A stretch of DNA of 64,000 nt, taken from positions 73-64,072 of the forward strand of contig JBEKEI010000011.1 of the NCBI GenBank assembly GCA_050013915.1, given 5' to 3'. The notes under the pieces are model-generated. The model was not told where the DNA came from, ran no database searches, and saw only the letters and a program-made list of their open reading frames with translations. Made by a program: the position numbers and the translations under genes. Source of the DNA: Roseiarcus sp. (lineage in GTDB: Bacteria > Pseudomonadota > Alphaproteobacteria > Rhizobiales > Beijerinckiaceae). Position 1 is the first letter of the stretch; the number at the start of each line of letters is the position of its first letter. Below, one piece after another: positions 44,751 to 61,450 of this stretch.

Positions 44751-46199
44751 ATGGACTCGCCCGGGACAGTTCTGATCGCCTCACAGGCCGAGAGCGAGTG
44801 GTCGGCCACCACCAGCATGCTGGCCGACGACTTTGGCTATCGCGTCCTGGTCGCCCGCTCGTCCGCGGAGACGGCCAAGGCGTTCCGCGACGTCCACGTT
44901 GATCTCGTCATCGCCGACGACGCCGCCGCGATCGACGGACGCAGCATCCTCGCCGGGCTTCGCATCTCCCATCCCGACATCATCCGGGTTCTGGTCGTCG
45001 ACGCGGAATGTGTCCTGACGCCAGGCGCGATCGCGGCGATGGCGGTGTACCAATTCGTTCGCAAACCGATCGACGCCCAGCAGATCAGCCTCGTCGTCGA
45101 GCGCGGGCTGGAGACCCGGGAACTTGCTCGCCGGCACCGCCTGCTGTCGCGCGAGTTCAAGGTCAAGGGCGACTCGACGGTTTTCAACGAGGGCCGCGGT
45201 CTGCCGTTTCGTCCCGAAAGCCAGCGCTTCGAGAAGCTCGTCTTCGTCAGCGAGAAACTGGCGGATCTGTGCGATCTCGCCCGCAAGGCCGCCAGGACCG
45301 AATTGCCGATCCTGATCCAGGGCGAGACGGGCACCGGGAAAGAGCTGCTGGCGCGCGCGATACACTACAACTCGCCCCGTCGCGCCAGTCCGCTCATGGT
45401 TCAGAACTGCGGCGGCATGCCGGACGATCTCCTCCACTCCGAGCTGTTCGGCCACAAGCGCGGCGCCTATACGGGCGCCATTTCGGATCGGCTGGGCCTG
45501 TTTCGCGCCGCCGATGGCGGGACGGTCTTTCTCGACGAAATCTCGGAGGTCTCGCCCTCCTTCCAGATCGCCCTCCTGCGCTTCCTCCAGGAGGGCGAGG
45601 TGAAGCCGCTCGGCTCCGACCGGACCGAGTTCTGCAACGTCAGGATCATCGCCGCGGCCAATCGTCCCTTGCGAAAGCTCGTGGCGGCCGGGGCCTATCG
45701 CCAGGATCTCTATTTCAGGCTGAAGGGCTTCGAACTCGAGGTGCCGCCGCTGCGGGACCGGCCGGACGACATTCCGGCGCTCGCCGAGTTTTTCGCAGCC
45801 AAGCACAGCGACGCGATCGGCAGGAAAATCCTCGGCCTCTCGGCCGGCGTCGTCGAAAAGCTGGTCGCCTTCGACTTTCCCGGCAATGTCCGGGAACTCG
45901 AGAACGAAATCCGGCGGATGGTCGCGCTCGCGAAGGACGGCGAATATCTGACCACGCAGAACCTGTCGCCGATGCTGCTCGCAGCCCCGCCGCGCGACGC
46001 GCCGGCGCGCCATGGCTTCGCGCCGGTGGGAGCCACGCTGAAGGACAAGGTCGAGAACCTCGAGAAGCACCTCGTTCGCGAGGTTCTCCAGCGCCATCGA
46101 TGGAATCAGAGCCGCGCCGCCAGCGAACTCGGCCTGTCCAGGGTTGGCCTCGCCAACAAGATCCGGCGCTATGACCTCGACGGCGCGGACCGGAGATAG
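44751..46199 (+). CDS. sigma-54-dependent NtrC/HoxA/HupR-like response regulator
   Basis: 482 aa. Receiver domain (DLVIADD, KP), AAA+ domain (GETGTGKE, GAYTGA, RxDLYFRL) and Fis-type HTH (NQSRAASELGLSRVGLANKIRRY). Confidence 0.85.
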   Translation: MDSPGTVLIASQAESEWSATTSMLADDFGYRVLVARSSAETAKAFRDVHVDLVIADDAAAIDGRSILAGLRISHPDIIRVLVVDAECVLTPGAIAAMAVYQFVRKPIDAQQISLVVERGLETRELARRHRLLSREFKVKGDSTVFNEGRGLPFRPESQRFEKLVFVSEKLADLCDLARKAARTELPILIQGETGTGKELLARAIHYNSPRRASPLMVQNCGGMPDDLLHSELFGHKRGAYTGAISDRLGLFRAADGGTVFLDEISEVSPSFQIALLRFLQEGEVKPLGSDRTEFCNVRIIAAANRPLRKLVAAGAYRQDLYFRLKGFELEVPPLRDRPDDIPALAEFFAAKHSDAIGRKILGLSAGVVEKLVAFDFPGNVRELENEIRRMVALAKDGEYLTTQNLSPMLLAAPPRDAPARHGFAPVGATLKDKVENLEKHLVREVLQRHRWNQSRAASELGLSRVGLANKIRRYDLDGADRR

Positions 46200-46204
46200 G
46201 CGCG

Positions 46205-46450
46205 ATGGTCGATCCGGACGATCCCGGCGGCAACCAGCGAGGCGGCGAGATCGTCCGCTTTCCGCAGTCCCGGCTGCGCCCGGCCGGCCGCGGCCAGAGG
46301 TTCCGGGAACTCGGTACGAGCCGGCTCGCCGCGCGTCTCGGATATCCGGACCGGCAGGCGACCGGCCACTGGTGCAGCCGCTGTCGCGGCATCTGGTACG
46401 GTTACCTGCTCGAAGCGACCTGTCCCGTTTGCGGCAACCGGCGCGGCTGA
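46205..46450 (+). CDS. zinc-ribbon small protein (CxxC-N15-CxxC)
   Basis: 81 aa. GGAGA lies 10 nt upstream of the ATG, and GC3 bias is strong. ...HWCSRCRGIWYGYLLEATCPVCGN. No family recognised. Confidence 0.45.
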   Translation: MVDPDDPGGNQRGGEIVRFPQSRLRPAGRGQRFRELGTSRLAARLGYPDRQATGHWCSRCRGIWYGYLLEATCPVCGNRRG

Positions 46451-46494
46451 ACCCGTAGCGCCGCGAGCGCGATCGCGCGATCTCTGTATAAACG

Positions 46495-46514
46495 TGCTTT
46501 GCAATAGCAAAGCA
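46495..46514. promoter_or_regulatory. perfect palindrome TGCTTTGC-AATA-GCAAAGCA, candidate enhancer (UAS)
   Basis: Lies about 105 bp upstream of the -24 element. A second palindrome, CTGATATCAG (46576-46585), lies in between. Confidence 0.35.
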
Positions 46515-46609
46515 ACCTTGCTGCGGCGAGTCCCCCGATCCACGCCAAGAGACCCGTGAGCTTTCGTCTAATCGACTGATATCAGATGGTTTTCCCGCAC
46601 GATCGGCGT

Positions 46610-46625
46610 TGGCACGTGAAATGCT
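46610..46625 (+). promoter_or_regulatory. sigma-54 (-24/-12) promoter
   Basis: TGGCACgtgaaATGCT. The GG and GC doublets are 12 nt apart, as in TGGCAC-N5-TTGC. It lies 59 nt upstream of the small-subunit ATG and next to an enhancer-binding-protein gene. Confidence 0.55.
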
Positions 46626-46683
46626 CGGCAGGTATCGGCCTCGCGACGCCGAGGCCCCGCGAAGAGCGCACCGGGAGGAAACG

Positions 46684-47646
46684 ATGCCCAATCTGCTGTG
46701 GCTCCAGGGCGGAGCGTGCTCCGGCAACACCATGTCGTTCCTCAACGCCGAGGAGCCGAGCGCCTGCGACCTCGTCACGGATTTCGGGATCAACGTGCTC
46801 TGGCATCCCTCGCTCGGCATGGAGCTCGGCGACAACCTGCAGAAGATGCTCAAGGGGCTCGTCGCCGGCGAGATGCCGCTCGACATCTTTGTCTTCGAGG
46901 GCACCGTCGTCAACGCGCCGGACGGGACCGGCGAATGGAATCGCTTCGCCGGCCGGCCGATGAAGGCCTGGGTCGCCGATCTCGCCAAGGTCGCCAGCTA
47001 CACCGTCGCGATCGGCGATTGCGCGACCTGGGGCGGCATTCCGGCCACCGCGCCCAACCCTTCGGAGAGCCAGGGCCTCCAGTTCCTCAAGCGCGCGCAC
47101 GGCGGATTCCTCGGCAAGGACTACCGGTCGAAGGCCGGTCTGCCCGCGATCAACGTCCCGGGCTGCCCGGCGCACCCCGACTGGATCACCCAGATCGTCG
47201 TCGCGGTCGCCACCGGGCGCGGCGCCGATCTCTCGCTCGACGAGCTGCAACGTCCCAAGACGTTCTTCACGAGCTTCACCCAGACCGGTTGCACCCGCAA
47301 CATGCATTTCGCCTACAAGGTTTCGGCGACCGAGTTCGGCCAGAGAAAGGGTTGCCTGTTCTACGACCTGGGATGCCGCGGGCCGATGACCCATTCCCCG
47401 TGCAATCGCATCCTGTGGAACCGCCAATCCTCGAAGACCCGCGCCGGCATGCCGTGCCTCGGCTGCACGGAGCCGGAATTCCCGTTCTCCGAACTGCTGC
47501 CGGGCACGGTGTTCAAGACCCAGACGGTGATGGGGATTCCCAAGGACATGCCGTCGGGCGTCGACAAGGCCGGCTACGTCAAATTGACTGCAGCGGCGAA
47601 GGCGGCGTCGCCCGCCTGGGCCGAAGAGGACATTTTCGTCGTCTGA
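46684..47646 (+). CDS. hupS: [NiFe]-hydrogenase small subunit, no Tat leader (group 2a-like)
   Basis: GGGAGGA-N4-ATG. MPNLLWLQGGACSGNTMSFLNAEEP...GDCATWGG...VPGCPAHPDW...GCLFYDLGCRGP...PCLGCTEPEFPF. Confidence 0.9.
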   Translation: MPNLLWLQGGACSGNTMSFLNAEEPSACDLVTDFGINVLWHPSLGMELGDNLQKMLKGLVAGEMPLDIFVFEGTVVNAPDGTGEWNRFAGRPMKAWVADLAKVASYTVAIGDCATWGGIPATAPNPSESQGLQFLKRAHGGFLGKDYRSKAGLPAINVPGCPAHPDWITQIVVAVATGRGADLSLDELQRPKTFFTSFTQTGCTRNMHFAYKVSATEFGQRKGCLFYDLGCRGPMTHSPCNRILWNRQSSKTRAGMPCLGCTEPEFPFSELLPGTVFKTQTVMGIPKDMPSGVDKAGYVKLTAAAKAASPAWAEEDIFVV

Positions 47647-47703
47647 CCATCGTCCATCCCAAGCGAACTCCCGCAGCAACTCTCCAAGGCGAGGACAATA
47701 TCC

Positions 47704-49302
47704 ATGGGCGCCGCTGTTCAAACGCTCGACATCTCACCCGTCGGCCGCGTCGAAGGCGATCTCGACGTTCGCGTGGAGATCGAAGACGGGGTCATCACCA
47801 ACGCCTGGACCCAGGCGGAGCTGTTTCGCGGCTTCGAGGTGATCCTGCGCGACAAGGATCCGCAGGCCGGGCTCGTCGTGACGCCGCGCGCCTGCGGCAT
47901 TTGCGGCGCGTCCCATCTGACCTGCGCGGCCTGGGCGCTCGACACGGCCTGGCAGACGACGGTGCCGCGCAACGCGATTCTGGCGAGAAATCTCGGCCAG
48001 ATCGTCGAGAGCCTGCAGAGCATTCCGCGCCATCACTACGGACTGTTCATGATCGACTATACGAACAAGAACTACTCGAAATCGAAATTTTACGAGGAAG
48101 CGGTGAAGCGCTGGTCGCCGTTCACCGGCGCCAATTACGAGATCGGGGTCACCATCTCGGGCAAGCCGGTCGAAATCTACGCGCTCCTCGGCGGCCAGTG
48201 GCCGCATTCCAGCTACATGGTGCCGGGCGGGGTGATGTGCGCGCCGACGCTGACCGACGTCACCCGGGCCTGGTCGATCCTCGAATATTTCCGGCGGGAG
48301 TGGATGGAGAGGGTCTGGCTCGGCTGCTCGCTCGAGCGCTACGAGGAGATCAAGTCCCACGACGACCTGATGGCCTGGATCGACGAACGGCCGGAGCATG
48401 CCAATTCCGATCTCGGCCTCTACTGGCGCATGAGCATGGACATCGGCGCCCACAAATTCGGGAAGGGCCACGGCAGGTTCATCAGCTGGGGCTATCTGCC
48501 CCATGAGGACAAATACAACAAGCCGACGATCGACGGCCGCAACGCCGCCCTCATCATGAAGAGCGGGGTCTATGACGGCGCCGCCGACTCGCACAAGCTG
48601 ATGGATCAGAAATTCACCCGCGAAGACACGCTGCACGCCTGGTATGACGAGCCCGGCGGCAAGCATCCGTTCGATCGCACCACGACGCCGACGCGCAAGA
48701 ACACGGTCGACATGGCGGGCAAGTATTCCTGGTCGACCGCCGTCCGCCACGAGGAGAACGGGCGGCTCGAGGCGGGGCCGCTGGCGCGGCAGATGGTGGC
48801 GGGCGGCAAGCACGGCGAATCCTGGCAGCATCACGATCCGCTTGTCCTCGACATGTACAAGAAGATGGGCGGCGCCAGCGTCCTGCTGCGCCACTTCGCC
48901 CGCATGCACGAGGGCGTGAAGCTCTATCGACAGGCGGAGCGCGCCTTGCGCGAGTTCAGGCTGAACGACCCCTGGTACGTCAAGCCGACCGAAAAGGACG
49001 GACGGGGCTGGGGCGCCACCGAAGCGATCCGCGGCGCGCTCTGCCACTGGATCGAAGTGCAGGGCGGCAAGATCAAGAACTATCAGATCGTCGCGCCCAC
49101 GACCTGGAACGTCGGGCCCCGATCGGGGGATGGCGTTCGCGGTCCGATGGAGGAAGCGCTCATTGGCGCGCCGATCGCCGATCCCCATGATCCCGTCGAG
49201 GTCGGCCATGTCTGCCGCTCCTACGACTCCTGCCTCGTCTGCACGGTGCACGCGCATGACGCCAGGACCGGCGAAGAGCTTGCGCGTTTTCGGACCGCGT
49301 GA
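47704..49302 (+). CDS. hupL: [NiFe]-hydrogenase large subunit (group 2a-like)
   Basis: 532 aa. LDISPVGRVEGDLDVRV, N-terminal Ni-Fe ligand pair RACGICGASH, C-terminal pair SYDSCLVCTVH, then a 16-aa cleavable tail. Confidence 0.9.
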   Translation: MGAAVQTLDISPVGRVEGDLDVRVEIEDGVITNAWTQAELFRGFEVILRDKDPQAGLVVTPRACGICGASHLTCAAWALDTAWQTTVPRNAILARNLGQIVESLQSIPRHHYGLFMIDYTNKNYSKSKFYEEAVKRWSPFTGANYEIGVTISGKPVEIYALLGGQWPHSSYMVPGGVMCAPTLTDVTRAWSILEYFRREWMERVWLGCSLERYEEIKSHDDLMAWIDERPEHANSDLGLYWRMSMDIGAHKFGKGHGRFISWGYLPHEDKYNKPTIDGRNAALIMKSGVYDGAADSHKLMDQKFTREDTLHAWYDEPGGKHPFDRTTTPTRKNTVDMAGKYSWSTAVRHEENGRLEAGPLARQMVAGGKHGESWQHHDPLVLDMYKKMGGASVLLRHFARMHEGVKLYRQAERALREFRLNDPWYVKPTEKDGRGWGATEAIRGALCHWIEVQGGKIKNYQIVAPTTWNVGPRSGDGVRGPMEEALIGAPIADPHDPVEVGHVCRSYDSCLVCTVHAHDARTGEELARFRTA

Positions 49303-49362
49303 GCGCGGTTCGAGGCCGGGCGACGGCGGTCCGCGGAATGAGATAGGCTCGCGACCGGGAGC

Positions 49363-49707
49363 ATGGCAGGATCCTCGTGCGAAAGGCGAGCGCCCATGAA
49401 CGGCGGCAGGGAAGGACAGCTCAAGGCGATCGCGACCCTGTTGGCGCGCGGCCTGGCCACCGAGGTCGAGCCCTTTCCGGAGACAGAGAAGGAATTCCTG
49501 ACGATCCTGACCGAACTGCGCCAGCTCGAGCCGGACGACCTCGAGGGAAAGCTCGTCGTCGGCGGCTTCCTCGACCACCCCTACGGTCCCGAGAAGCAGC
49601 GATGCATGGAATGCATGTACTATCTGGTGCATCGCCGGTGGTGCGATCTGCCGGAACTGGCGGTGCCCGTCGAACCCGACTGGTGGTGTCGTCTTTGGCG
49701 CATCTGA
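49363..49707 (+). CDS. small Cys-rich protein, HiPIP-like CxxC-x9-C-x14-C motif (copy 1)
   Basis: Ends ...QRCMECMYYLVHRRWCDLPELAVPVEPDWWCRLWRI. Start is ATG 49363 or ATG 49396. No signal peptide. Confidence 0.55.
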   Translation: MAGSSCERRAPMNGGREGQLKAIATLLARGLATEVEPFPETEKEFLTILTELRQLEPDDLEGKLVVGGFLDHPYGPEKQRCMECMYYLVHRRWCDLPELAVPVEPDWWCRLWRI

Positions 49708-49754
49708 CGCCGTCGGGGCGGCGACGAACCGGCGTCGGGAGGCAGGAGTTCAGC

Positions 49755-49982
49755 GTGAGCGATCCAGCCAGCCAAGCCATCGTCGATCGTCTCCGGGCGG
49801 CCGCGGGCATGAAGGAAAGGGCCGTCATCGCGGAACTGGCGCACGCGCCCGTCGAGTCCGATGGGATCAGTAGGTCCTGCGAGAACTGCATCTATTTTCT
49901 TGCCCGCCGCAGCTGGTGCGATTTGCCGGAACTCGACATTCCGGTCGATCCCGAATGGTACTGCGCGCTATGGCGGGTCTGA
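49755..49982 (+). CDS. small Cys-rich protein, HiPIP-like motif (copy 2)
   Basis: AGGAG-N6-GTG 49755. Ends ...SRSCENCIYFLARRSWCDLPELDIPVDPEWYCALWRV. A clear paralog of the preceding ORF. Confidence 0.55.
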   Translation: MSDPASQAIVDRLRAAAGMKERAVIAELAHAPVESDGISRSCENCIYFLARRSWCDLPELDIPVDPEWYCALWRV

Positions 49983-50062
49983 CCCGGGGGCGGACGCCGC
50001 CATCGCCGCCGCAGGAGGCCCGAAGGCCCGCGTTTCCCCGGGCCGGATTCCGGGAGCAAGGA

Positions 50063-50551
50063 GTGATCGCCGTCATCGGGTGCGGAAATTCAAATCGCTG
50101 CGACGACGGCGTCGGCCCCGAGGTCGTGCGCGCCCTCAGGAAACGCGACTTCGGCGCCGGGATCGGGCGATTGCGGCTCATCGATGCCGGGACGGACGGG
50201 ATGGCGGCGATGTTCGCGGCGCGCGGTTGCGCCACGCTGATCATCGTCGACGCCTGCCGCTCCGGGGCGGAAGCCGGGGCGATCTTCGAGGTCCCCGGAC
50301 ATGAACTCGCGCAGAGCTACGCGCCCTCGCTCACCCTGCACGATTTCCGTTGGGATCACGCACTGGATGCGGGGCGCAGGATTTTCCGCGAGGCCTTTCC
50401 GGCCGACGTGGTCGTGCTGCTCGTCGAGGCGGCGACGGTGGATTACGGGCTCGGCCTGTCGCCGGCCGCCGCCGCCGCCGCGGCGATGGTCGTGCGCCGC
50501 ATCGAAACGTTGATCGCGGCGCGCCTGCAATCAGAGGCGGCCGGCTCATGA
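50063..50551 (+). CDS. hupD: hydrogenase maturation endopeptidase (HupD/HybD family)
   Basis: GTG 50063 follows GGAGCAAGGAG. VIAVIGCGNSNRCDDGVGPEVVRAL...LIIVDA...LHDF. Confidence 0.8.
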   Translation: MIAVIGCGNSNRCDDGVGPEVVRALRKRDFGAGIGRLRLIDAGTDGMAAMFAARGCATLIIVDACRSGAEAGAIFEVPGHELAQSYAPSLTLHDFRWDHALDAGRRIFREAFPADVVVLLVEAATVDYGLGLSPAAAAAAAMVVRRIETLIAARLQSEAAGS

Positions 50552-50868
50552 GCGCGCCCGCGACCGTCACCCTGAAGCGCGGCAGCCTCTACCTGAGCCG
50601 CGATGTCGCCGATCGCTATTTGGCGGGGCTCGAGGCGATCGTCCTGCTGCGTCGGGGCGACGACCTCGCGATCCTCCCGGTGCGGCATGCGGCGGCGGGC
50701 GGGTCCTTCCTCAAGCGTCGCAACAGCGCCGGCGACCGCGTCGTTCACGCGCCGGAATTCTTTCGCGCGCATGACGTCGGCGACGACATCGAACGCGAAC
50801 TCGCCGTCTCATGGTCGAGGGAAGCGGCCGGGCTGGTCGCGACAGGCGCCTTCGCTTCGCAAAGATAG
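50548..50868 (+). CDS. hypothetical 106-aa protein coupled to the endopeptidase gene
   Basis: The ATG overlaps the hupD stop (ATGA). MSAPATVTLKRGSLYLSRDVADRYLAGLEAIVLLRRGDDLAILPV... No family recognised. Confidence 0.5.
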   Translation: MSAPATVTLKRGSLYLSRDVADRYLAGLEAIVLLRRGDDLAILPVRHAAAGGSFLKRRNSAGDRVVHAPEFFRAHDVGDDIERELAVSWSREAAGLVATGAFASQR

Positions 50869-50971
50869 TTTGCAATTCGCATAAGCGTTAGACATTCGAT
50901 CGGCGTTGCGTTAGCTTTTGCCAAAACATGCGTCCCTGATGTCGGAACCAGGTCGCACGGGAGGATGCGCA

Positions 50972-52018
50972 ATGGCGGGTGATCGCGTTGCGGACGAGAT
51001 CCGGGCCGCGCTGGCCGCAGCCGAGGACGAGAGCGCCGCCGCGTCCGAGCGCGCCGAAATGCTGATGGAAATCGCGATGGGTCTCCAGCAACGGCCGAAG
51101 TCGGCCGATCAGCTGCGCTCGGCGGTCGCCCTCTACGACAGGGCGCTGGCGACCTGCCCGGAAGACGAGCCCCTGCTGCGCGCCCGGATCATGGCGAGGA
51201 AGGGGACCGCGCTGCAGGCCATCCCCGAACAGGGCACGAGCGCGCTCGAGGCGGCGCGCGCGGCCTACGAGCAGGCGATGCCGACCCTTTCGAAAGCAGG
51301 CCGGGCGGAAGAACTCGCCGAGGCCGAGATGAATCTGGGGGTGGTCATCCAGAACCTCTGCGGCGCCGGCCGGGCGCGCGTCACGGATGCGATCTCGGCC
51401 TATCAACGCGCGCTGCGCACTTTCGATCGCGACCGCCATCCCAGCGAATTCGCGATCCTGCAGAACAATCTCGCGACGGCGTTTCTGTCGATTCCCTTCG
51501 CGGACGAACGCGGCAGGATGCGCGAGGCGCTCGCGGTGCAGGCGTTCGAGGAGGGGCTGCGGGTCGTCAATCTCGTCGATCATCCGCAGGAATATGCGAT
51601 GCTGCAGAACAATCTCGGCAATGCGCTGCAATATGCGTCGTCCGGCCATGTCGCGGCGAACAATCTGCGTGCGCTCGAAGCCTATCACGAGGCGCTGAGA
51701 GTGCGGACGCGCGAATCCTCGCCGCTCGAATTCGCCAATACGATTTCCAACATGGCCAATTGCCTGTGGAACCTGCCGGACGAGCCGGGCCGCCCCGAGC
51801 ATGGCAATCGGGTCAATCTGGCGAGGGCCAGGGCGGCCTATGCCGAGGCGCGCGCGATATTCGTGGCGCATGGCGAAACCGACAAGGCGCGCATCGTCGG
51901 CGAAGCGCTCGATCAGATCGGACGCGAAATTCTCGCGCTGCCGGCGACCGACGCGATCGGCGCGCCGGGCCGAGCGGGTCCCGGCGCCGGTGCGGAGCGG
52001 AGCGCAGCGGCGCCATGA
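50972..52018 (+). CDS. TPR-like helical-repeat protein
   Basis: GGGAGGA precedes ATG 50972. Repeated ...A..AY..AL......P.E.A.LQNNLG.A... units. Confidence 0.6.
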   Translation: MAGDRVADEIRAALAAAEDESAAASERAEMLMEIAMGLQQRPKSADQLRSAVALYDRALATCPEDEPLLRARIMARKGTALQAIPEQGTSALEAARAAYEQAMPTLSKAGRAEELAEAEMNLGVVIQNLCGAGRARVTDAISAYQRALRTFDRDRHPSEFAILQNNLATAFLSIPFADERGRMREALAVQAFEEGLRVVNLVDHPQEYAMLQNNLGNALQYASSGHVAANNLRALEAYHEALRVRTRESSPLEFANTISNMANCLWNLPDEPGRPEHGNRVNLARARAAYAEARAIFVAHGETDKARIVGEALDQIGREILALPATDAIGAPGRAGPGAGAERSAAAP

Positions 52019-52221
52019 CCGGTCTGTCGCCCGGCGCCGCGCTGGCGGCCTTCGTCCTCGGCCTGGCCGCCTCGGTCGTCGGGGGCGCGCTCGGCGGCGT
52101 CGCGATCGGCGGCAAGGCGCTCGGCAACCAGCTCGCCGGTGCGATGGGCGGATTTTTCGGGCCGCTGGCCGGCGCCGGCGGACTCGTCGTCGGCCTCGTC
52201 GTACTGGCGATCATCCGCTGA
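52015..52221 (+). CDS. 68-aa glycine-zipper membrane protein
   Basis: The ATG overlaps the TPR stop (ATGA). MTGLSPGAALAAFVLGLAASVVGGALGGVAIGGKALGNQLAGAMGGFFGPLAGAGGLVVGLVVLAIIR. Confidence 0.5.
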   Translation: MTGLSPGAALAAFVLGLAASVVGGALGGVAIGGKALGNQLAGAMGGFFGPLAGAGGLVVGLVVLAIIR

Positions 52222-52233
52222 GGAGCCTCCCCG

Positions 52234-53336: not shown

Positions 53337-54539
53337 ATGCGTGTCTCGCTCGCCCCCTCGCATCTGCGCGCGGTCCCGATCCGGGGCGGACCGGGCGCCG
53401 GCGCGCCGGCGCTGCTCGCCGCGGATGGCGCGCGCGTCCTGCTCGGCGGCAGCGTGGGGGAGGACGGCCTGGCGCGCCCGATCGCGCCCGCCGCCGCGAC
53501 GCTGTTCGGGCCGCGCGGCGCGGCTCTCGCAGGGCCCGACGGGCCGCTGTTCGTCTGCGACACCGGCCATCACCGGCTGCTGATGTGGCGGCGGATTCCC
53601 GATGCGGACAACACGCCCGCCGACCTCCTGATCGGCCAGCCGGACTTTTCCCGCGAAGGGCGCAATGGCAGGCGCGAGGTCGGGCCGGCGACGCTCAACG
53701 TCCCGACCGGCGTCAGCGCGGCCGAGGGCGCGCTCGCGATCGCCGACGCCTGGAATCATCGGGTGCTGATCTGGCGAAACCATCCCGACGCCGCGAACCG
53801 GCCCGCCGACGTCGTGCTCGGCCAGGCCGACTTCCGCTCCGGCGCCGCCAATCGCGGCCTCGACCGCGCGCGCGCCGACACGCTGAACTGGTGCTACGGC
53901 GTCGCGATCGCGCAGGGCAGGCTCATCGTCGCCGATACCGGCAACCGGCGCGTCCTCGTCTGGAACGCCATTCCGGAGACGAACGGCGCGCCGGCGGATC
54001 TCGTCCTCGGGCAGCGGGATTTCACCACCCGCGACGAGAACGCGGGCGAAGGCGCGGGCGCGCGCGGAATGCGCTGGCCGCACGGCCTCGCAGTCGCGAA
54101 CGACACGATCCTGGTCGCCGACGCGGGCGACAATCGCGTGATGGGCTGGCGGGGTTGGCCGCGGGCGAACGGCGCGCCGTGCCACTTCGTGCTGGGCCAG
54201 GCCGACATGACCGGGCTCGACCACAACCGCGGCGCCTATCACCCGACCGCGGGCGCGCTGAACATGCCCTATGGGCTCGGCGTGCAGGCTTCGCGCCTGA
54301 TCGTCGCCGACACCGCCAATTCGCGCCTGCTCGGCTTCGAACTGGCGGAGCTGGCGACCGGCGCGCCGGCCTCGCGGCTCGCCGCCCAGCGCGACTTCGG
54401 CGACAAGGGCGACAACCGCTGGTCCAACGCCGCCCGCGACAGCCTGTGCTGGCCCTATGGCGCGGCGGCCTGCGGCGCGACTCTGGCGATCGCCGACACC
54501 GGCAACAACCGCGTGCTCCTGTGGGAGGCCGCGCCATGA
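53337..54539 (+). CDS. NHL-repeat beta-propeller protein
   Basis: 400 aa with six repeats of the type IADTGNNRVLLW / VADTGNRRVLVW / IADAWNHRVLIW. Confidence 0.8.
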   Translation: MRVSLAPSHLRAVPIRGGPGAGAPALLAADGARVLLGGSVGEDGLARPIAPAAATLFGPRGAALAGPDGPLFVCDTGHHRLLMWRRIPDADNTPADLLIGQPDFSREGRNGRREVGPATLNVPTGVSAAEGALAIADAWNHRVLIWRNHPDAANRPADVVLGQADFRSGAANRGLDRARADTLNWCYGVAIAQGRLIVADTGNRRVLVWNAIPETNGAPADLVLGQRDFTTRDENAGEGAGARGMRWPHGLAVANDTILVADAGDNRVMGWRGWPRANGAPCHFVLGQADMTGLDHNRGAYHPTAGALNMPYGLGVQASRLIVADTANSRLLGFELAELATGAPASRLAAQRDFGDKGDNRWSNAARDSLCWPYGAAACGATLAIADTGNNRVLLWEAAP

Positions 54540-56965
54540 CCCTGTCCGGAGGCGGCGCGCCCGAGGCGCGGGCGGTCGCGATGGAGGTTCGGGTTCGTGG
54601 CCGCGTGCAGGGCGTCGGGTTTCGGCCGACGGTCTGGCGCATTGCGCGAGAGCTCGGCCTCGCCGGCGAAGTCTTCAATGACCCGCAAGGGGTGCTGGTG
54701 CGCATCGGCGGCGATGAAGGCGCGGTCGCCGCATTTCTCGACCGCATGCAGCGCGAGCCGCCGCCGCTCGGGCGCATCGACCGCATCGAGACCCGCGCCT
54801 TTGGCGGCGCGCTGCCGCGCCAGTTCCGCATCGCCGAGAGCGTCGGCGGCGCCGCGCGCACCGAGATCGCGCCGGACGCCGCGATCTGCAGAGCCTGCGC
54901 CGAGGAGATCGTCGATCCCTTCGAACGGCGGTTTCGCTATCCCTTCGCCAATTGCACGCATTGCGGGCCGCGCCTGACCATCGTCGAAGGCATCCCCTAC
55001 GATCGCGCGCGGACGACGATGGCGCCATTCGCACGATGCGAGGCCTGCGAGGCCGAATATCTCGATCCCGCCGACCGCCGCTTCCACGCGGAAGCGATTG
55101 CCTGTCACGTCTGCGGACCCGGAGCGTCGCTGGTCCGCCTGGACCGGCGCGCGGCGAGCTTCGACCAGCACTCGACGCTCGACGCCGTCGACGCGATCTG
55201 CGGCCTGATCCAAAAGGGCGAAATCGTCGCGATCAAGGGTCTGGGCGGCTACCACCTCGCCTGCGACGCCACCAGGACGGAAGCTGTGGCGCGGCTGCGC
55301 CGGCTCAAGCGCCGCCACGCCAAGCCGTTCGCGCTGATGGCCCGGGATCTCGACGTCATCCGCGACTATTGCACCGTCGACGCCGAGGAGGAGCGCCTGC
55401 TCGCCAGCGCCGCGGGGCCGATCGTCCTGCTCGCCGCCGGGGGCGCCGAACGGCTGCCGGAAGCGGTCGCGCCCGGCCTCTCGACCCTCGGCTTCATGCT
55501 GCCGGCGACCCCTGTGCATCTTCTCGTGCTGCGGCGCATGAACCGGCCAGTGGTGATGACGAGCGGCAACCTGTCGGACGAACCGCAGGTCATCGACGAG
55601 GCGGCCGCGCATGAACGGCTCGCCGGGATCGCCACCTACGCGCTGATCCATGACCGCCGGATCGCCAATCGCGTCGATGATTCAGTCGCGCGGGTCATGG
55701 CCGGCCGGGCGCGCATCCTGCGCCGCGCGCGCGGTTTCGCGCCGGCGCCGCTCGCGCTGCCGGCGGGCTTCGCATCGGCCCCCGAGCTGCTGGCGATGGG
55801 CGGCCAATTGAAGGCGACGTTCTGTCTGGTCAAGGACGGCGAGGCGATCCTCTCGCAGCACCAGGGCGATCTCGAGGACGCCGCGACCTTCGACGACTAC
55901 CGCAGGAATCTCGCGCTCTATGCCGCGCTGTTCGATCACGCGCCCGTCGCCGTCGTCGCCGACCGGCATCCTGAATATCTCTCGTCGAAACTGGCTCGCG
56001 AGCGGGCGCGATCCGAGGCGCTGCCGCTGATCGAGGTTCAGCACCATCACGCCCATGTCGCCGCCTGCCTGGCCGAGAACGGCTATCCGATCGACGCCCC
56101 GCCGGCGCTCGGGATCGTCCTCGACGGCCTGGGCTGGGGCGAGGCCGGAACGCTCTGGGGCGGCGAATTCCTGCTCGCCGGCTACCGTGGCTTCGAGAGG
56201 CTCGGCACGTTCAAGCCGGTGCCGATGCCCGGCGGCGCGACGGCCGCACGCGAGCCCTGGCGCAATCTCTACGCCCATCTCATGGCCGAGATGGGTTGGG
56301 CCGAGTTCACGATGAATTTCGCCGCGCTGGAGGTCCATGCCGATCTCTCGGCGCGGCCGCGCGCCACGCTCGACGCGATGATCCGCGACGGCGTGAATTC
56401 GCCGAAGGCTTCATCGTGCGGCCGGCTGTTCGATGCGGTCGCCGCGGCGCTCGACATCTGCCGCGGGCGTCAGGCCTATGAGGGCGAGGCCGCCGCGCGG
56501 CTCGAGGCGCTGGTCGATCGGGATGCGTTGCGCGACGAGCAGGATTCGCTCGGCTATCCCTTCTCCATCCCCAATCTCGGCGGCTCGGGCCTGCCCTATG
56601 TCGAGCCGCTCGCGATGTGGCGGGCGATCCTCGGCGACCTCGTCCTGCAGACGCCGCCGCCGGTGATGGCGGCGCGCTTTCACAAAGGCCTCGCCATCGC
56701 CATCGTCGCCATGGCGACGAAGCTGGCGCGTCGCGACGACGAGGCCGGTCCGCGCTTCGCCGCCGTCGCCCTGACCGGCGGCTGTTTCCAGAACCGCATC
56801 CTGTTCGAAGAGGTCGCCAGGCGTCTCGAACGCGAGAGGTTCACGGTTCTTTCCCACGCCCTGGTTCCGGCGAATGACGGCGGCGTCGCGCTCGGCCAGG
56901 CCGTGATCGGGGCCGCGCGTCTCATCCGGGCCGGGGCGATCGACGAGGGAAACCGTCAAACCTAA
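54536..56965 (+). CDS. hypF: carbamoyltransferase HypF
   Basis: The ATG overlaps the NHL stop. Acylphosphatase domain (VRGRVQGVGFRP), two zinc fingers (CRACAEE...CTHCGPR; CEACEAE...CHVCGP), YrdC and Kae1-like domains. Confidence 0.9.
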   Translation: MTLSGGGAPEARAVAMEVRVRGRVQGVGFRPTVWRIARELGLAGEVFNDPQGVLVRIGGDEGAVAAFLDRMQREPPPLGRIDRIETRAFGGALPRQFRIAESVGGAARTEIAPDAAICRACAEEIVDPFERRFRYPFANCTHCGPRLTIVEGIPYDRARTTMAPFARCEACEAEYLDPADRRFHAEAIACHVCGPGASLVRLDRRAASFDQHSTLDAVDAICGLIQKGEIVAIKGLGGYHLACDATRTEAVARLRRLKRRHAKPFALMARDLDVIRDYCTVDAEEERLLASAAGPIVLLAAGGAERLPEAVAPGLSTLGFMLPATPVHLLVLRRMNRPVVMTSGNLSDEPQVIDEAAAHERLAGIATYALIHDRRIANRVDDSVARVMAGRARILRRARGFAPAPLALPAGFASAPELLAMGGQLKATFCLVKDGEAILSQHQGDLEDAATFDDYRRNLALYAALFDHAPVAVVADRHPEYLSSKLARERARSEALPLIEVQHHHAHVAACLAENGYPIDAPPALGIVLDGLGWGEAGTLWGGEFLLAGYRGFERLGTFKPVPMPGGATAAREPWRNLYAHLMAEMGWAEFTMNFAALEVHADLSARPRATLDAMIRDGVNSPKASSCGRLFDAVAAALDICRGRQAYEGEAAARLEALVDRDALRDEQDSLGYPFSIPNLGGSGLPYVEPLAMWRAILGDLVLQTPPPVMAARFHKGLAIAIVAMATKLARRDDEAGPRFAAVALTGGCFQNRILFEEVARRLERERFTVLSHALVPANDGGVALGQAVIGAARLIRAGAIDEGNRQT

Positions 56966-56976
56966 GGAGACGCGCC

Positions 56977-57258
56977 ATGTGCCTCGGGATTCCCGGCCAG
57001 ATCGTTGGGATCGACGACGTCGCGAAGAAACTGGCGACGGTCGACGTCAGCGGCGTCCGCCGACAGGTGAACGTCGCCTGCATCGTCGGCGACGGGCGCC
57101 CGATCGAGTCCTGCGTCGGGGCCTGGGTGCTGATTCATGTCGGCTTCGCGATGAGCCGCATCGACGAAGCCGAAGCGGCCGCGACGCTGAAAATCCTGAC
57201 CGAACTCGGCGAGGCGCAGGCCGAGCTGGAGGCGATGCGGCTGTCTGCGGCGCATTGA
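56977..57258 (+). CDS. hypC: hydrogenase assembly chaperone HypC/HupF
   Basis: MCLGIPGQIVGIDD... Confidence 0.9.
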   Translation: MCLGIPGQIVGIDDVAKKLATVDVSGVRRQVNVACIVGDGRPIESCVGAWVLIHVGFAMSRIDEAEAAATLKILTELGEAQAELEAMRLSAAH

Positions 57259-57270
57259 GGAGGACCGGCC

Positions 57271-57963
57271 ATGTCCAACGGAGGCGATCTGGAGGGGCTC
57301 TACCCGTTCCTGCACGGCAGGAGCCAGGACACGGGCGCACTCGACGCCGCGCTGCTCCATTCGGTGGAGGAGAAGGCGCGCGACTCGCGGGAGACCAACC
57401 TGCGCTTCTTCGCCGCGCAGGCGCCGGTGCTCGTCGCGGCCGCGAAGACGGTTGCGGCGGTCTACCGGGGCGGCGGCCGGCTGTTCTCGATGGGCAATGG
57501 CGGCTCCAGCTGCGACGCGTCGCATGTGGCGGTCGAATTCGTCCATCCGATCACGGCGGGCCGCCCGGCGCTCGCCGCGATCAATCTCGTCGCCGATCTC
57601 GCGATGATCTCCGCCGTCGGCAATGACGTCGGCTTCGATCACGTCTTCGTTCGCCAGATCATCGCCCAGGGCAAGGCGGGCGACGGGCTCATCGGCATTT
57701 CGACCAGCGGCAATTCGGCCAATCTGATCGCGGCCTTCGCCAAGGCCAGGCAGATGGGCATCGCGACCATCGGGCTGGCGGGCGGCGAGGGCGGCCGGAT
57801 GGCGGCGAGCGGGGTCGTCGACCATTGTCTGGTCGTGCCCACGACCTCGATCCATCGCATCCAGGAATGCCACGTCGTCGCCTATCACATTCTCTGGGAC
57901 CTCGTGCACACCTTGCTGGCGGACGATCGCGGTTCGGCGACCACCAGGGGAGCGGCGGCATGA
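57271..57963 (+). CDS. SIS-domain (GmhA/phosphoheptose-isomerase-like) protein
   Basis: 230 aa. FSMGNGGSSCDASHVAVEF...GISTSGNSANL. Sits between hypC and hypD, and its stop overlaps the hypD ATG. Confidence 0.8.
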   Translation: MSNGGDLEGLYPFLHGRSQDTGALDAALLHSVEEKARDSRETNLRFFAAQAPVLVAAAKTVAAVYRGGGRLFSMGNGGSSCDASHVAVEFVHPITAGRPALAAINLVADLAMISAVGNDVGFDHVFVRQIIAQGKAGDGLIGISTSGNSANLIAAFAKARQMGIATIGLAGGEGGRMAASGVVDHCLVVPTTSIHRIQECHVVAYHILWDLVHTLLADDRGSATTRGAAA

Positions 57964-59090
57964 AATATCTCGACGAATTTCGCGACCGGGCCAAGGCCGC
58001 GATTCTGGTGGCGGAGATCGACGCGCTGGTCGCGACGATGAGGATTCCCGCCGACCGGCCTCTCCACATCATGGAGGTTTGCGGCGGCCATACCCATTCG
58101 ATCTTCCGTTACGGGATCGAGGGCATGCTGCCCAGGCAGATCGAGCTCGTCCACGGCCCGGGATGTCCAGTCTGCGTCCTGCCGATGGGGCGGGTCGACG
58201 ATTGCGTCAGCATCGCCGAACGACCGGGGGTGATCTTCGCCACGTTCGGCGACGCGATGCGGGTGCCCGGATCCGGCAAGAGCCTTCTCCAGGCGAAGGC
58301 CGACGGCGCCGACGTGCGGATGGTCTATTCGCCGATGGATGCGCTCGCCATCGCCCGCCGGAATCCCGACCGCGAGGTCGTGTTTTTCGGGCTCGGCTTC
58401 GAGACCACCATGCCCTCGACCGCGCTGACGATCCTGCAGGCGGAAGCCGACGGCGTCGCCAACTTCTCGGTGTTCTGCAATCACATCACCATCGTTCCGA
58501 CGATCAAGGCCATTCTCGACAGTCCGGACCTCAGGCTCGACGGCTTCCTCGGCCCGGGCCATGTGTCGATGGTGATCGGCACGGCGCCCTATGCGTTCAT
58601 CGCCGATTTCTATCGCAAGCCGATGGTCGTCGCCGGCTTCGAGCCGCTCGACATTCTCCAGTCGATCTGGATGGTCCTCAAGCAGATCAGGGAGGGACGC
58701 GCCGAGATCGAGAACCAATATGCGCGCGTCGTCCCCGACCAGGGCAACGGGCCCGCGCTACGGGCGGTGTCGCGCGTCTATGAACTGCGCGCATTCTTCG
58801 AATGGCGCGGCCTCGGATCGATCGACCACTCCGGCGTCAGGTTGCGCGACGCCTACGCCCGGTTCGACGCGGAGCGGAAATTCGCCATTCCGAACGTCCG
58901 GATCGCCGACCCCAAGTCCTGCCAATGCGGCGAAGTGCTGAAGGGCGTCATCAAGCCCTGGCAGTGCAAGGTGTTCGGATCCGCCTGCACGCCGGAGACG
59001 CCGCTCGGCGCGCTGATGGTCTCTTCGGAGGGCGCTTGCGCGGCCTATTATCAGTACGGCGGCGTCAAACACCATGTGGCGGCCGAATGA
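57960..59090 (+). CDS. hypD: hydrogenase formation protein HypD
   Basis: MKYLDEFRD...MEVCGGHTHSIF...GPGCPVCV...GFETT... Confidence 0.9.
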   Translation: MKYLDEFRDRAKAAILVAEIDALVATMRIPADRPLHIMEVCGGHTHSIFRYGIEGMLPRQIELVHGPGCPVCVLPMGRVDDCVSIAERPGVIFATFGDAMRVPGSGKSLLQAKADGADVRMVYSPMDALAIARRNPDREVVFFGLGFETTMPSTALTILQAEADGVANFSVFCNHITIVPTIKAILDSPDLRLDGFLGPGHVSMVIGTAPYAFIADFYRKPMVVAGFEPLDILQSIWMVLKQIREGRAEIENQYARVVPDQGNGPALRAVSRVYELRAFFEWRGLGSIDHSGVRLRDAYARFDAERKFAIPNVRIADPKSCQCGEVLKGVIKPWQCKVFGSACTPETPLGALMVSSEGACAAYYQYGGVKHHVAAE

Positions 59091-60154
59091 ACATCGCTCC
59101 CCCCCTACGCGCCCGCGCGCTCGGCAGGGTCCATGTCCCGACCGTCACGCTCGCCCATGGCGGCGGGGGCAAGGCGATGAAGGATCTGATCGACGACGTC
59201 TTCATCGACGCCTTCGGCGCGGGGGCGCCGGCGCCGCTGGAGGATCAGGCCCGGTTCGATCTCGCGGAGCTCGCTTCGCACGGCGACCGGCTCGCCTTCA
59301 CCACGGATTCCTTCGTCGTCGATCCCCTGTTCTTTCCCGGCGGCGACATCGGCCGGCTCGCGGTCTGCGGGACCGTCAACGACCTGGCGGTCGGCGGGGC
59401 CCGGCCGCTCTACCTTTCCTGCGCGGCGATCGTCGAGGAGGGCGTCAGCGTCGCTCTCCTGCGCCAGGTGGCCGACTCGATGGCCACCACCGCCAGGGAG
59501 GCGGGCGTCGGGATCGTCACCGGCGACACCAAAGTCGTGCCGCGCGGCGCCTGCGACAGGCTGTTCCTCACGACGACAGGGATCGGCGTCATCCGCCAGG
59601 GCCTGACGCTCGGCGCTCATCTGGCGCGGCCGGGCGACGTCGTCCTGGTCAACGGACTGCTCGGCGATCACGGGGCGGCGATCCTCTGCGCGCGCGGCGA
59701 CATGGCGCTGGAGACGCCGATCCAGAGCGATTGCGCCGCGCTGCACGGACTCGTCGCGCAGATGGTCGCCGCCGCGCCCGGAATCCGCTGCCTGCGCGAC
59801 GCCACGCGCGGCGGCGTCGCGACCGTCCTCAACGAACTCGCCGAAGCCTCGGGGGTCGAGATCGAGATCGACGAGGCGGCGACGCCGATCCGCGAGGAGG
59901 TGAAGGCGTTCTGCGAGATTCTGGGTCTTGATCCGCTCTATCTCGCCAATGAGGGCAAGCTCGTCGCGGTCGCCCCGGCCGACGAGGCGGCGGCCCTGCT
60001 CGCCGCGATGCGCGCCCATCCGCTCGGGCCGCGCGCGGGCGTCATCGGGCGCGTCCGGTCCGGGGCGGCGGGACATGTCACGATGCGCACCGTCTTCGGC
60101 GGCCGCAGAGTGGTGGACATGCTGGTCGGCGAACAGCTGCCGCGGATCTGTTGA
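59087..60154 (+). CDS. hypE: hydrogenase expression/formation protein HypE
   Basis: LAHGGGGKAM...TTDSFVV...C-terminal ...GEQLPRIC. Confidence 0.9.
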   Translation: MNIAPPLRARALGRVHVPTVTLAHGGGGKAMKDLIDDVFIDAFGAGAPAPLEDQARFDLAELASHGDRLAFTTDSFVVDPLFFPGGDIGRLAVCGTVNDLAVGGARPLYLSCAAIVEEGVSVALLRQVADSMATTAREAGVGIVTGDTKVVPRGACDRLFLTTTGIGVIRQGLTLGAHLARPGDVVLVNGLLGDHGAAILCARGDMALETPIQSDCAALHGLVAQMVAAAPGIRCLRDATRGGVATVLNELAEASGVEIEIDEAATPIREEVKAFCEILGLDPLYLANEGKLVAVAPADEAAALLAAMRAHPLGPRAGVIGRVRSGAAGHVTMRTVFGGRRVVDMLVGEQLPRIC

Positions 60155-60161
60155 GAGCGCC

Positions 60162-60500
60162 ATGCACGAACTCGGCATCACGCGCAACATCGTCGCCATC
60201 GTCAGCGAGGCCGCCGAGGGCCGCCCGGTTCGCCGCGTCACGATCGAGATCGGCAAACTGTCGGGGGTGCTGAGCGAGGCGATCGCCTTCTGTTTCGACG
60301 CCGTGGCCCGCGGCACGGCGCTCGAAGGCGCGCGCCTCGAGATCCGTGAGATCGACGGGCGCGCCCGCTGCACGCAATGCGATGCGGAATTCGCCGCCGA
60401 CACGCTGTTCACGCCCTGCCCATGTGGTTCGCGACGCTTCGTGCGGCTTCGCGGCGAAGAGCTGAACATCAAGTCGATGGAGCTGACGGAGGCTGCGTGA
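60162..60500 (+). CDS. hypA: hydrogenase nickel insertion protein HypA
   Basis: [11 protein letters not shown]...CTQC...CPCG zinc site. Confidence 0.85.
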
Positions 60501-61450
60501 TGTGCGGACATTGCGGGTGCGGAAGCGAGGCCGGGGCGAGCGTGCTCAATCTCCAGACCGGGAAGGAAATCACGATGGGAGTCGATCGGCGCGATCACGA
60601 TCACGGCGACCCGGATGGCGCGCGGCGCCACCACGACCATCATCACGACCGGGACCATGCCCATGGCGCGCACGACCGCCACGCGCACGGTCACGACCAC
60701 GATCACAGCCATCCGCGCGACCATGACCATGCCGACGACGCGAGCCATCGGGGCCGCCACAGCGGCGCCGCGGCGGCGGCGGGGCTGGTCGAACTCGAGG
60801 CGCAGATTCTCGACAAGAACGACAGGCTCGCCGCCAGGAACCGGGCCTGGTTCAGGGGCCGCGAGATTCTCGCGCTCAACCTCGTCAGCTCGCCGGGCGC
60901 GGGCAAGACGACGCTGCTCGAACGGACGATCCGGGACCTCGGCGGCGCGTTGAAAATCTTCGTGGTCGAAGGCGATCAGGCGACGTCCAACGACGGCGAG
61001 CGAATTCGCGCCGCCGGGGCGCCGGCCGTGCAGGTCAACACCGGCGCCGGCTGTCATCTCGAAGCCGACATGGTCGCGCGCGGCGTGCAGGAGCTGAAGC
61101 CGACCGCCGGTTCGGTCGTCATGATCGAAAACGTCGGCAATCTCGTCTGCCCCGCGCTGTTCGATCTGGGCGAGCGCGCCAAGGTCCTGATTCTGTCGGT
61201 CGCGGAGGGCGAGGACAAGCCGCTCAAATATCCCCACATGTTCCGCGCCGCCGAAGTCATGATCCTCAACAAGATCGATCTCCTGCCGCATGTCGATTTT
61301 GACCCGGCGCGCGCGATCGCCAACGCGCGTCGGGTGAATCCCGACATCGCCGTGATCCCGCTGTCCGCCCGCACCGGCGAGGGACTGGCGGCCTGGTACG
61401 AATGGCTTCGTCGGGAATGCGGCGCGGTCGCCGATGCGGCGTTCGCCTGA
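60500..61450 (+). CDS. hypB: hydrogenase nickel incorporation GTPase HypB with His/Asp-rich tract
   Basis: MCGHCGCG N-terminal metal site, then an HD-rich tract of about 70 aa ([28 protein letters not shown]), then GSPGAGKTT...ENVGNLVCP...NKIDL. Confidence 0.9.

Follow-up and report, generated by a model that had tools for sequence, protein, structure and literature searches.

A HucM-less group 2a [NiFe]-hydrogenase module under predicted sigma-54 control in a Roseiarcus-like bacterium

The window analysed here is a 64,000-nucleotide (nt) stretch of a Roseiarcus sp. genome assembly (contig JBEKEI010000011.1). Between positions 44751 and 61450 it encodes a complete structural and maturation module for a group 2a [NiFe]-hydrogenase, including hypABCDEF, a tail-cleaving endopeptidase and the accessory genes specific to group 2a. 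Sequence comparisons indicate that the proteobacterial Huc (group 2a) module is present here as a chromosomal copy in a Roseiarcus-like bacterium of the Hyphomicrobiales, and the locus is very probably best explained as a HucM-less, sigma-54-controlled, Huc-type module for H2 oxidation. The locus is a further case of a known and widespread system with an experimentally characterised orthologue. The additions made here are the invariant quinone and cluster residues of the small subunit HucS, the absence of HucM, an activator with a pseudo-receiver domain, the lack of support for classing two gene products as high-potential iron-sulfur proteins (HiPIPs), and the fusion of one accessory protein, g08, to the maturation protease in Mycobacterium. 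Atmospheric H2 is removed biologically in part by group 2a enzymes, and soil and peat harbour Hyphomicrobiales in abundance; the locus adds a Roseiarcus-like lineage to the likely H2 scavengers.

Gene content and group 2a assignment

The module is a single rightwards-transcribed chain of 20 co-oriented genes (44751-61450, + strand), as seen in frame plots of GC content at third codon positions (GC3), in Pfam and NCBIfam scans, and in independent gene calls by the Joint Genome Institute (JGI) made on metagenome contigs identical to the window. Raw lists of open reading frames (ORFs) are noisy because the window is GC-rich (~69%). A preliminary description made from the sequence had already recognised the co-oriented chain and named its members, but it gave a total of 22 genes; the chain counts 20, and the higher figure is a miscount since that description's own list has 20 items. 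Junctions within the chain overlap by 4 nt in five cases (ATGA type), by 1 nt in one and by 13 nt in one, and the widest intergenic gap (233 nt) separates an ORF of 81 amino acids (aa), g02, from hucS. The product of g05 is 100% identical to a protein of a 'Roseiarcus sp.' metagenome-assembled genome (MAG).

The large subunit gene hucL (47704-49302, + strand) encodes a 532-aa protein that matches Mycobacterium smegmatis HucL over its full length with 627 bits and ~60% identity; the runner-up among PDB hydrogenases, a group 1 enzyme, reaches 211 bits, and 5AA5, a group 1h enzyme in the same database, 121 bits. Comparison with plasmids by tblastn separates three bands of identity. The first, at 79-86%, consists of alphaproteobacterial orthologues including that of Sphingopyxis alaskensis RB2256; the second, at ~55%, contains the group 2a enzymes of Mycobacterium, Thermus, Runella and Sulfobacillus; and the third, at 33-37%, contains HoxC/HupV (group 2b) and a diguanylate-cyclase-linked enzyme (group 2c). 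Identity to group 1h and 1d enzymes is 27-28%. In a neighbour-joining (NJ) tree whose references of groups 1d, 1h, 2b, 2c and 3d were taken from pHG1 and other plasmids, HucL falls inside the 2a clade. Bit scores, identity bands and tree thus all assign the large subunit to group 2a, as the preliminary description had proposed, and none of them places it with the sensory groups 2b and 2c or with group 1.

HucL carries the L1 motif RACGICGASH and the L2 motif DSCLVCTVH, the latter followed by a 16-residue tail. This motif with its tail is common to all group 2a members compared, whereas the 2b sensors stop at the His. In the PDB, the mature chain of Huc terminates at the His aligned with HucL H516, so the 16 residues beyond it are the likely substrate of the endopeptidase encoded nearby, in agreement with the cleavable tail described earlier. 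HucL also retains E17, I66 and L114 (Huc E15, I64 and L112) and H168 (Huc His166), but these bottleneck residues and the His tell little because they are kept in other hydrogenase groups too.

The small subunit gene hucS (46684-47646, + strand) encodes a 320-aa protein with the Huc-type C-terminal extension, which scores 521 bits against M. smegmatis HucS (~70% identity, full length). Its ATG at 46684 lies behind GGGAGGA and gives a protein beginning MPNLLWLQGGACSGN, in agreement with the JGI call; it is taken as the true start because an upstream ATG at 46621 sits inside the -24/-12 element discussed below. The alignment begins at residue 2-3 of M. smegmatis HucS and runs end to end, including the C-terminal extension. 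No RRxF motif indicative of a twin-arginine translocation (Tat) signal is present in this protein or in a longer 341-aa reading, consistent with the leaderless small subunit reported previously. The first cluster motif of HucS is CSGN, a three-Cys proximal site whose Cys and Asn are invariant in orthologues, and the stretches holding the remaining cluster cysteines are identical to those of M. smegmatis HucS, with all Cys motifs invariant. In M. smegmatis HucS all three clusters are [3Fe-4S] and the menaquinone head group is held by Lys212, Tyr229 and Tyr301 (PMC10017518). The residues aligned with these three in the HucS encoded here (K212, Y227 and Y298) are invariant in 78 orthologues.

Conservation of the module was assessed in the best 80 of 307 relatives, with one genome per species scanned. 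These 80 are 81-91% identical, nearly all are Alphaproteobacteria, and they include Bradyrhizobium, Mesorhizobium, Hyphomicrobium, Methylocella, Methylocapsa, Methylocystis, Afipia, Dongiaceae and Zavarzinia. The gene set from the activator to hypE is present in almost all of these loci with order and strand kept, including the ORFs of 68-106 aa, and 18 testable genes, small ORFs included, have the same order and strand in ~75 of the 80, well beyond what coincidence would give. The module is plasmid-borne in several genera, and its residence on plasmids, one of them a mobilizable plasmid of 28.5 kb, is taken to argue that it needs only generic host partners.

A core of hucS, hucL, the protease gene, g08 and genes for a TPR-like protein, HucE, an NHL protein and the hyp functions with SIS is common to all group 2a clusters compared. 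The protease gene g07 (50063-50551, + strand, with the start of the JGI call) encodes a 162-aa maturation endopeptidase of the HupD/HycI family (Pfam HycI, 8.9e-12; TIGR00072, 1.6e-33). It is followed by g08 (50548-50868, + strand), which encodes a 106-aa beta-rich protein for which AlphaFold2 (AF2) gives a confident model of a small pseudo-barrel, with a predicted local distance difference test score (pLDDT) of 89.3 and a predicted template modelling score (pTM) of 0.81. The best Foldseek matches in the PDB are weak and are to plant B3 pseudo-barrels (E 0.07, TM 0.47); with no PDB match at E <=0.001, no function could be assigned from the fold. In Mycobacterium the g08 protein is joined to the C-terminal end of the protease, Thermus and Sulfobacillus encode it as an ORF of its own, and we infer that this partner of the 2a protease is a protease-associated maturation factor.

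The 348-aa product of g09 (50972-52018, + strand) has no Pfam match of its own and is recognised as TPR-like by homology to proteins annotated as TPR in the 2a clusters of Thermus (33%, 8e-32), Sulfobacillus, Runella and Mycobacterium. HucE, the 289-aa product of g12 (52466-53335, + strand), combines a NifU-like domain (Pfam NifU, 3.6e-21) with a Rieske [2Fe-2S] domain (6.9e-16) and contains CDGC and CAH-x16-CPHH motifs. The 400-aa NHL-repeat beta-propeller protein encoded by g13 (53337-54539, + strand; Pfam NHL, 3.3e-25) is 44% identical to its Mycobacterium counterpart. Genomic association with HucE, NHL-repeat and hypothetical proteins has been described for group 2a hydrogenases (Islam 2020, PMC7784904), and the same association is found at this locus.

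The hyp block, also on the + strand, comprises hypF (54536-56965; TIGR00143), hypC (56977-57258; TIGR00074), a gene for a SIS/GmhA-like protein (57271-57963; SIS_2), hypD (57960-59090; TIGR00075), hypE (59087-60154; TIGR02124), hypA (60162-60500; TIGR00100) and hypB (60500-61450; TIGR00073). The SIS protein is 70% identical to that of the group 1h hyp cluster of Cupriavidus necator (locus L091, 14694-15383), whereas the hydrogenases themselves share 27%. This likeness suggests either a maturation factor common to O2-insensitive enzymes or exchange of a hyp-SIS cassette.

Predicted sigma-54 promoter and its activator

Transcription of the structural and maturation genes would begin at a sigma-54 promoter situated 60 nt upstream of hucS. 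The putative -24/-12 element TGGCACGTGAAATGCT (46610-46625, + strand) fits 11 of the 12 specified positions of TGGCACG-N4-TTGCW. A -24/-12-type element is situated 63-102 nt upstream of hucS in most of 79 loci, with the best element scoring at least 10/12 in 70 of them. In the locus itself, the GG-N10-GC element stands at a suitable distance from hucS and is accompanied by a gene for an AAA+ activator with a sigma-54 interaction domain. These observations strengthen the earlier proposal of sigma-54 control and place the hucS operon behind a conserved predicted sigma-54 promoter. No sigma-70-like promoter sites and no convincing terminators were found in the interval 44000-62500.

The activator gene g01 (44751-46199, + strand), just upstream, encodes a 482-aa sigma-54-dependent protein of the NtrC/HoxA type (Pfam Sigma54_activat, 2.6e-60; AAA_lid_14; HTH_8) with a degenerate N-terminal receiver domain, and this HoxA-like enhancer-binding protein would switch on the hucS promoter. 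Along its entire length it shares 38% identity with C. necator HoxA, and the HoxA/HoxBC/HoxJ (group 2b) system of C. necator likewise uses a sigma-54 promoter. However, the Response_reg domain of g01 scores only 17.9 bits, below the Pfam cut-off, and has lost its acidic pair; at the phospho-acceptor position, 41 of 67 orthologues have Glu and 24 have Asp. Unlike in C. necator, the flanks of the locus contain no gene for a histidine kinase or for HupUV or another sensor hydrogenase. With neither an acidic pocket nor a neighbouring cognate kinase, g01 does not qualify as a response regulator, and activator control may be kinase-independent because the receiver domain has no phosphorylation pocket. 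An adjacent, kinase-less sigma-54 'HupR' was recorded for the group 2a Hup system of Acidithiobacillus ferrooxidans in 2008 (PMC2621215); that regulator is divergently transcribed, whereas g01 is co-oriented with the hydrogenase genes.

Only 5 nt 3' of the activator gene is g02 (46205-46450, + strand), whose 81-aa product has a zinc-ribbon-like C-terminal CxxC-x17-CxxC arrangement and would be the obvious candidate for a partner of the activator. It adjoins the activator gene in ~70 loci, and its GHWCSRC…CPxCG segment is at least 95% conserved while the N-terminus is variable; scans of Pfam and NCBIfam give no match. The counterpart on the S. alaskensis plasmid (locus L081, 8652-8849) does not appear in the gene table of the record as PLSDB lists it, and may be a systematically missed small gene.

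A perfect palindrome, TGCTTTGCAATAGCAAAGCA (46495-46514), is situated ~100 bp before the -24 element as a candidate upstream activator site (UAS). The 6-mers TTTGCA/TGCAAA occur in 63 of 79 orthologous upstream regions and in 4 of 79 coding controls, an enrichment that is weak because the coding control is AT-poor. The palindrome and these half-sites together suggest a candidate binding site for the activator. A single conserved palindromic UAS was considered and rejected, as perfect palindromes vary between loci and only the half-sites are enriched.

A route to quinone in the absence of HucM

HucM, a DUF1641 protein, is encoded just upstream of hucS in Mycobacterium, and the 2a clusters of Thermus and Sulfobacillus likewise come with DUF1641 genes or clear relatives of them. 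Members of this family are quinone-transporting scaffolds (PMC13524794). No DUF1641 match was obtained among the ORFs of the locus with Pfam, tblastn with three DUF1641 proteins found none in the window or in the 80 related loci, and the concatenated unknown ORFs gave no match to HucM in the PDB. Sequence searches of the locus thereby confirm that, as first noted, neither a cytochrome b nor a HucM-like gene is present there; a HucM copy may exist elsewhere in the genome. Conversely, g05, g06, g10, g11, the sigma-54 activator gene and the zinc-ribbon ORF are missing in the clusters of Mycobacterium, Thermus, Runella and Sulfobacillus, so that HucM and the set g05/g06/g10/g11 have complementary distributions among group 2a clusters.

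The genes g05 (49396-49707, + strand; 103 aa, soluble) and g06 (49695-49982, + strand; 95 aa, TTG start, overlapping g05 by 13 nt) lie directly 3' of hucL and encode paralogues. Their alignment shows an invariant C-terminal C-x2-C-x9-C-x14-C (Cys4) domain that has many Trp and Tyr residues and contains WC, WWC and LW motifs. The second copy, g06, is conserved in related loci, and all 1237 close homologues of g05 are named 'hypothetical'. An exhaustive profile search recovers only 139 clusters at 50% identity for the family, for which there is no Pfam model, and the AF2 model of g05 is unreliable (pLDDT 58.9, and below 50 in the Cys domain). The cysteine spacing resembles the HiPIP signature, and the preliminary description had called the two ORFs HiPIP-like. 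That label depends on spacing and is unsupported by any profile test: g05 and g06 themselves have no Pfam match, just 2 of 38 family members match HiPIP (PF01355) in Pfam, at E >=1.2, and PDB searches by profile and by single sequence, the 44-aa Cys domain included, yield no HiPIP among matches up to E 10. The best weak PDB match of the Cys domain is the PHD finger of UHRF1, which binds zinc (E 0.47). An ORF near hupLS of A. ferrooxidans has also been named 'putative HiPIP' (PMC7735108).

About 40 members of the Cys4 family are 'long forms' of 330-545 aa with the Cys4 domain at the C-terminus, from Gallionellaceae- and Burkholderiaceae-like (Betaproteobacteria-like) MAGs, and their N-terminal regions contain no Pfam domain. 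In one Burkholderiaceae MAG (locus L096) a long-form gene has cydAB/DUF3422 on one side and a 2a accessory block on the other (TPR-like, two tiny ORFs, NifU-Rieske, NHL and hypFC-SIS-hypDE), and hucSL does not occur within 10 kb of it; in another case (locus L095) it is not near any hydrogenase gene. The long forms were set aside as a clue to g05, their context being uninformative or only partly hydrogenase-linked.

Two tiny membrane proteins are encoded further downstream. The 68-aa Gly-rich product of g10 (52015-52221, + strand) has two transmembrane segments by hydropathy and matches the 'asr0689 family' of NCBIfam (NF052670) at 1.7e-8, below the curated cut-off; the 74-aa product of g11 (52234-52458, + strand) is a membrane protein by hydropathy and is kept in ~74 loci. 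Through the asr0689 match, the group made up of TPR, the two tiny ORFs, NifU and NHL is linked to the extended hyp operon of cyanobacteria.

Orthology strongly suggests that the locus serves aerobic H2 uptake, maybe down to atmospheric levels. During growth, S. alaskensis consumes H2 to sub-atmospheric levels and expresses hucL (PMC10305171); its cluster is syntenic with the one described here, which supports the trace-gas scavenging proposed in the preliminary description. A cytosolic HucSL heterodimer would carry out high-affinity, O2-insensitive H2 oxidation to atmospheric traces and pass electrons directly to the respiratory quinone at the distal-cluster site of HucS. The quinone pool of Alphaproteobacteria is ubiquinone, not menaquinone. 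As HucM is absent, the membrane quinone pool would have to be reached some other way. HucSL may dock on the membrane directly, perhaps helped by the two Cys4 proteins, whose genes appear to fill the operon slot of cytochrome b in group 1 operons, by the two tiny membrane proteins, or by both. HucE, the NHL and TPR proteins, g08 and SIS would act in assembly or as accessory electron-transfer factors. The combined reading, in which the Cys4 pair and/or the tiny membrane proteins functionally replace the DUF1641 stalk by docking HucSL, the HucS quinone site reduces ubiquinone, and expression is governed by a kinase-independent pseudo-receiver activator with a zinc-ribbon partner, is tentative and as a whole rather unlikely. 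The complementary distribution of HucM and the Cys4 and tiny membrane proteins, together with the invariant quinone site, does make it a concrete, genetically testable hypothesis, and coupling to quinone without HucM and kinase-independent sigma-54 control are where the residual interest of the locus lies.

Several points weigh against the picture drawn here. Only M. smegmatis Huc has been shown to reduce quinone directly, using menaquinone and in the presence of HucM, and the conserved contact residues are no proof of ubiquinone reduction without a stalk. The roles suggested for g05, g06, g10 and g11 derive only from gene position and phyletic pattern, and those proposed for the cyanobacterial tiny ORFs concern maturation, not coupling (PMC2408588). 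High-affinity, O2-insensitive H2 oxidation has been demonstrated only for the S. alaskensis and M. smegmatis relatives and is a prediction for the enzyme encoded here; the bottleneck Glu, Ile and Leu are also conserved in low-affinity enzymes and so do not discriminate. Neither rpoN nor a nickel transporter gene is in the window, and the candidate UAS comprises no single clearly conserved site.

Two other readings of the extra genes overlap with replacement of the stalk, and the weights given to the three are not exclusive. It is a real possibility, if short of probable, that g05, g06, g08, g10 and g11 are maturation or O2-protection factors for an all-[3Fe-4S] small subunit, in the manner of the HoxR rubredoxin and HoxO/Q/T/V, and have no role in respiratory coupling. 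The fusion of g08 to the maturation protease in Mycobacterium points this way, as does the location of the genes between the structural and hyp genes, an arrangement shared with asr0689-alr0693 of the cyanobacterial extended hyp operon, for which a role in maturation of HupS has been proposed (PMC2408588); rubredoxin-type Cys4 proteins are moreover known maturation factors in the membrane-bound hydrogenase (MBH) operon. However, HucM-bearing 2a enzymes with the same cluster motifs mature without g05, g06, g10 and g11. Nor do these proteins have detectable homology to HoxO/Q/R/T/V: when the unknown ORFs were compared with the C. necator MBH accessory proteins and with the 1h cluster, nothing matched except SIS and the protease.

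A doubtful alternative is that the physiological acceptors of electrons are g05 and g06, alone or together with HucE, acting as soluble high-potential Fe-S carriers that feed the quinone pool or a bc1/oxidase branch, and that HucSL itself does not reduce quinone. Four invariant cysteines in HiPIP-like spacing with aromatic flanks are consistent with such carriers, and the two genes occupy the cytochrome b slot next to hucL and are absent exactly where HucM is present. In A. ferrooxidans the 'putative HiPIP' homologue and Rieske-NifU, both detected in proteomes, have been proposed as the missing link to the ubiquinone pool (PMC7735108), and Huc of M. smegmatis depends on HucE for its activity (PMC6883350). 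Against this stand the lack of significant HiPIP similarity in Pfam and the PDB, and the absence of a signal peptide from g05 and g06, while classical HiPIPs are periplasmic. The Cys4 site could bind zinc instead, given that its best weak match is a zinc-binding finger, and the invariant quinone residues of HucS are hard to explain if quinone is not the acceptor.

It is very unlikely that the enzyme is an H2 sensor feeding the adjacent sigma-54 activator: HoxA does pair with a group 2b sensor in C. necator and the enzyme is cytosolic with no Tat leader, but such a role is rejected on the 33-37% identity of HucL to 2b and 2c enzymes, its position outside them in the NJ tree and its C-terminal tail, which the compared 2b sensors lack together with a neighbouring dedicated protease, and is further opposed by the absence of a HoxJ/HupT kinase or PAS partner nearby and by the consumption of bulk H2 by the S. 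alaskensis orthologue.

Related systems and flanking regions

One 20-gene module, often plasmid-borne, is common to Bradyrhizobium, Mesorhizobium, Hyphomicrobium, Methylocella, Methylocapsa, Sphingopyxis and others. The preliminary description drew attention to many partner genes with no assigned role; these are real, but earlier papers on cyanobacteria, mycobacteria and A. ferrooxidans had already remarked on them.

The closest characterised system is that of S. alaskensis, whose HucL and HucS are 80.8% and 82.5% identical to those encoded here. Gene order is identical from the sigma-54 regulator to hypB, including the Cys4 pair, g08, TPR, the tiny pair, NifU-Rieske, NHL and SIS, except for an extra HflD-like ORF before hypA in S. 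alaskensis. The module fills most of the 28.5-kb mobilizable plasmid there, whereas it is chromosomal in the Roseiarcus-like bacterium, and the source organisms and habitats differ.

M. smegmatis Huc (HucSLM; PDB 7UTD, 7UUS and 8DQV) resembles the present enzyme in its Fe-S motifs, including the three-Cys proximal site, in the quinone head-group residues, in the HucS C-terminal extension and in the C-terminal processing site. The two clusters share the protease, the g08 domain, TPR, HucE, NHL, SIS and hyp genes. They differ in the HucM stalk, for which no gene is present at this locus, and in the two Cys4 ORFs and two tiny membrane proteins that are extra here. Control differs as well, with sigma-54 and an enhancer-binding protein here and, in mycobacteria, reported glycerol/GylR-linked regulation.

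Two further systems can be set beside the locus. The A. ferrooxidans group 2a Hup system, going by its published description, has a 'putative HiPIP' near hupLS, NifU-Rieske, GmhA (SIS) and hyp genes (PMC7735108). In Nostoc sp. PCC 7120, two tiny ORFs with two transmembrane segments each, TPR, NifU-like and NHL genes (asr0689-alr0693) are located between the hupSL structural genes and the hyp genes (PMC2408588); this system differs in its sigma-70/NtcA regulation, in the Cys4 ORFs, which are not among the five ORFs described, and in its role of recycling nitrogenase H2.

The rest of the window is ordinary chromosomal housekeeping content, including Lgt, PntAB, QueG, MetK, a tRNA-Ser, an ABC transporter and others. 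Flanking genes for an AraC-family regulator, a UPF0261 protein and a Zn-dependent alcohol dehydrogenase were considered as parts of the module and rejected, as they are not conserved in related loci. The AraC-family gene (43096-44235, - strand) is divergent from the sigma-54 activator gene, and an AraC gene is likewise divergent upstream of hucM on a Mycobacterium plasmid (locus L082); the shared placement is probably coincidence because the AraC gene of the window is not conserved in the 80 alphaproteobacterial loci. On the plasmid of S. alaskensis a gene for a DUF3422 protein (L081, 5726-6991) is the immediate upstream neighbour of the 2a module, and a DUF3422 fragment lies beside the long-form Cys4 gene of the Burkholderiaceae MAG (L096, 9382-9801). 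The link of DUF3422 to 2a and Cys4 genes may be recurrent, though it is absent from this window.

The tRNA-Ser(GGA) gene (27005-27094) is at the edge of the stretch of lowest GC content (26000-32000; GC 0.62-0.65 vs ~0.70) and overlaps the extended call of an opposite-strand HTH_3 ORF; this edge may be an integration hotspot or an island boundary. A gene at 29082-31121 (- strand) encodes a 679-aa protein in which a complete acyl-CoA dehydrogenase is fused to an enoyl-CoA hydratase domain. A 760-aa ORF call (22064-24346, + strand) has TetR domains only at residues 568-736, and its long N-terminal part is probably an over-extended frame typical of high-GC DNA.

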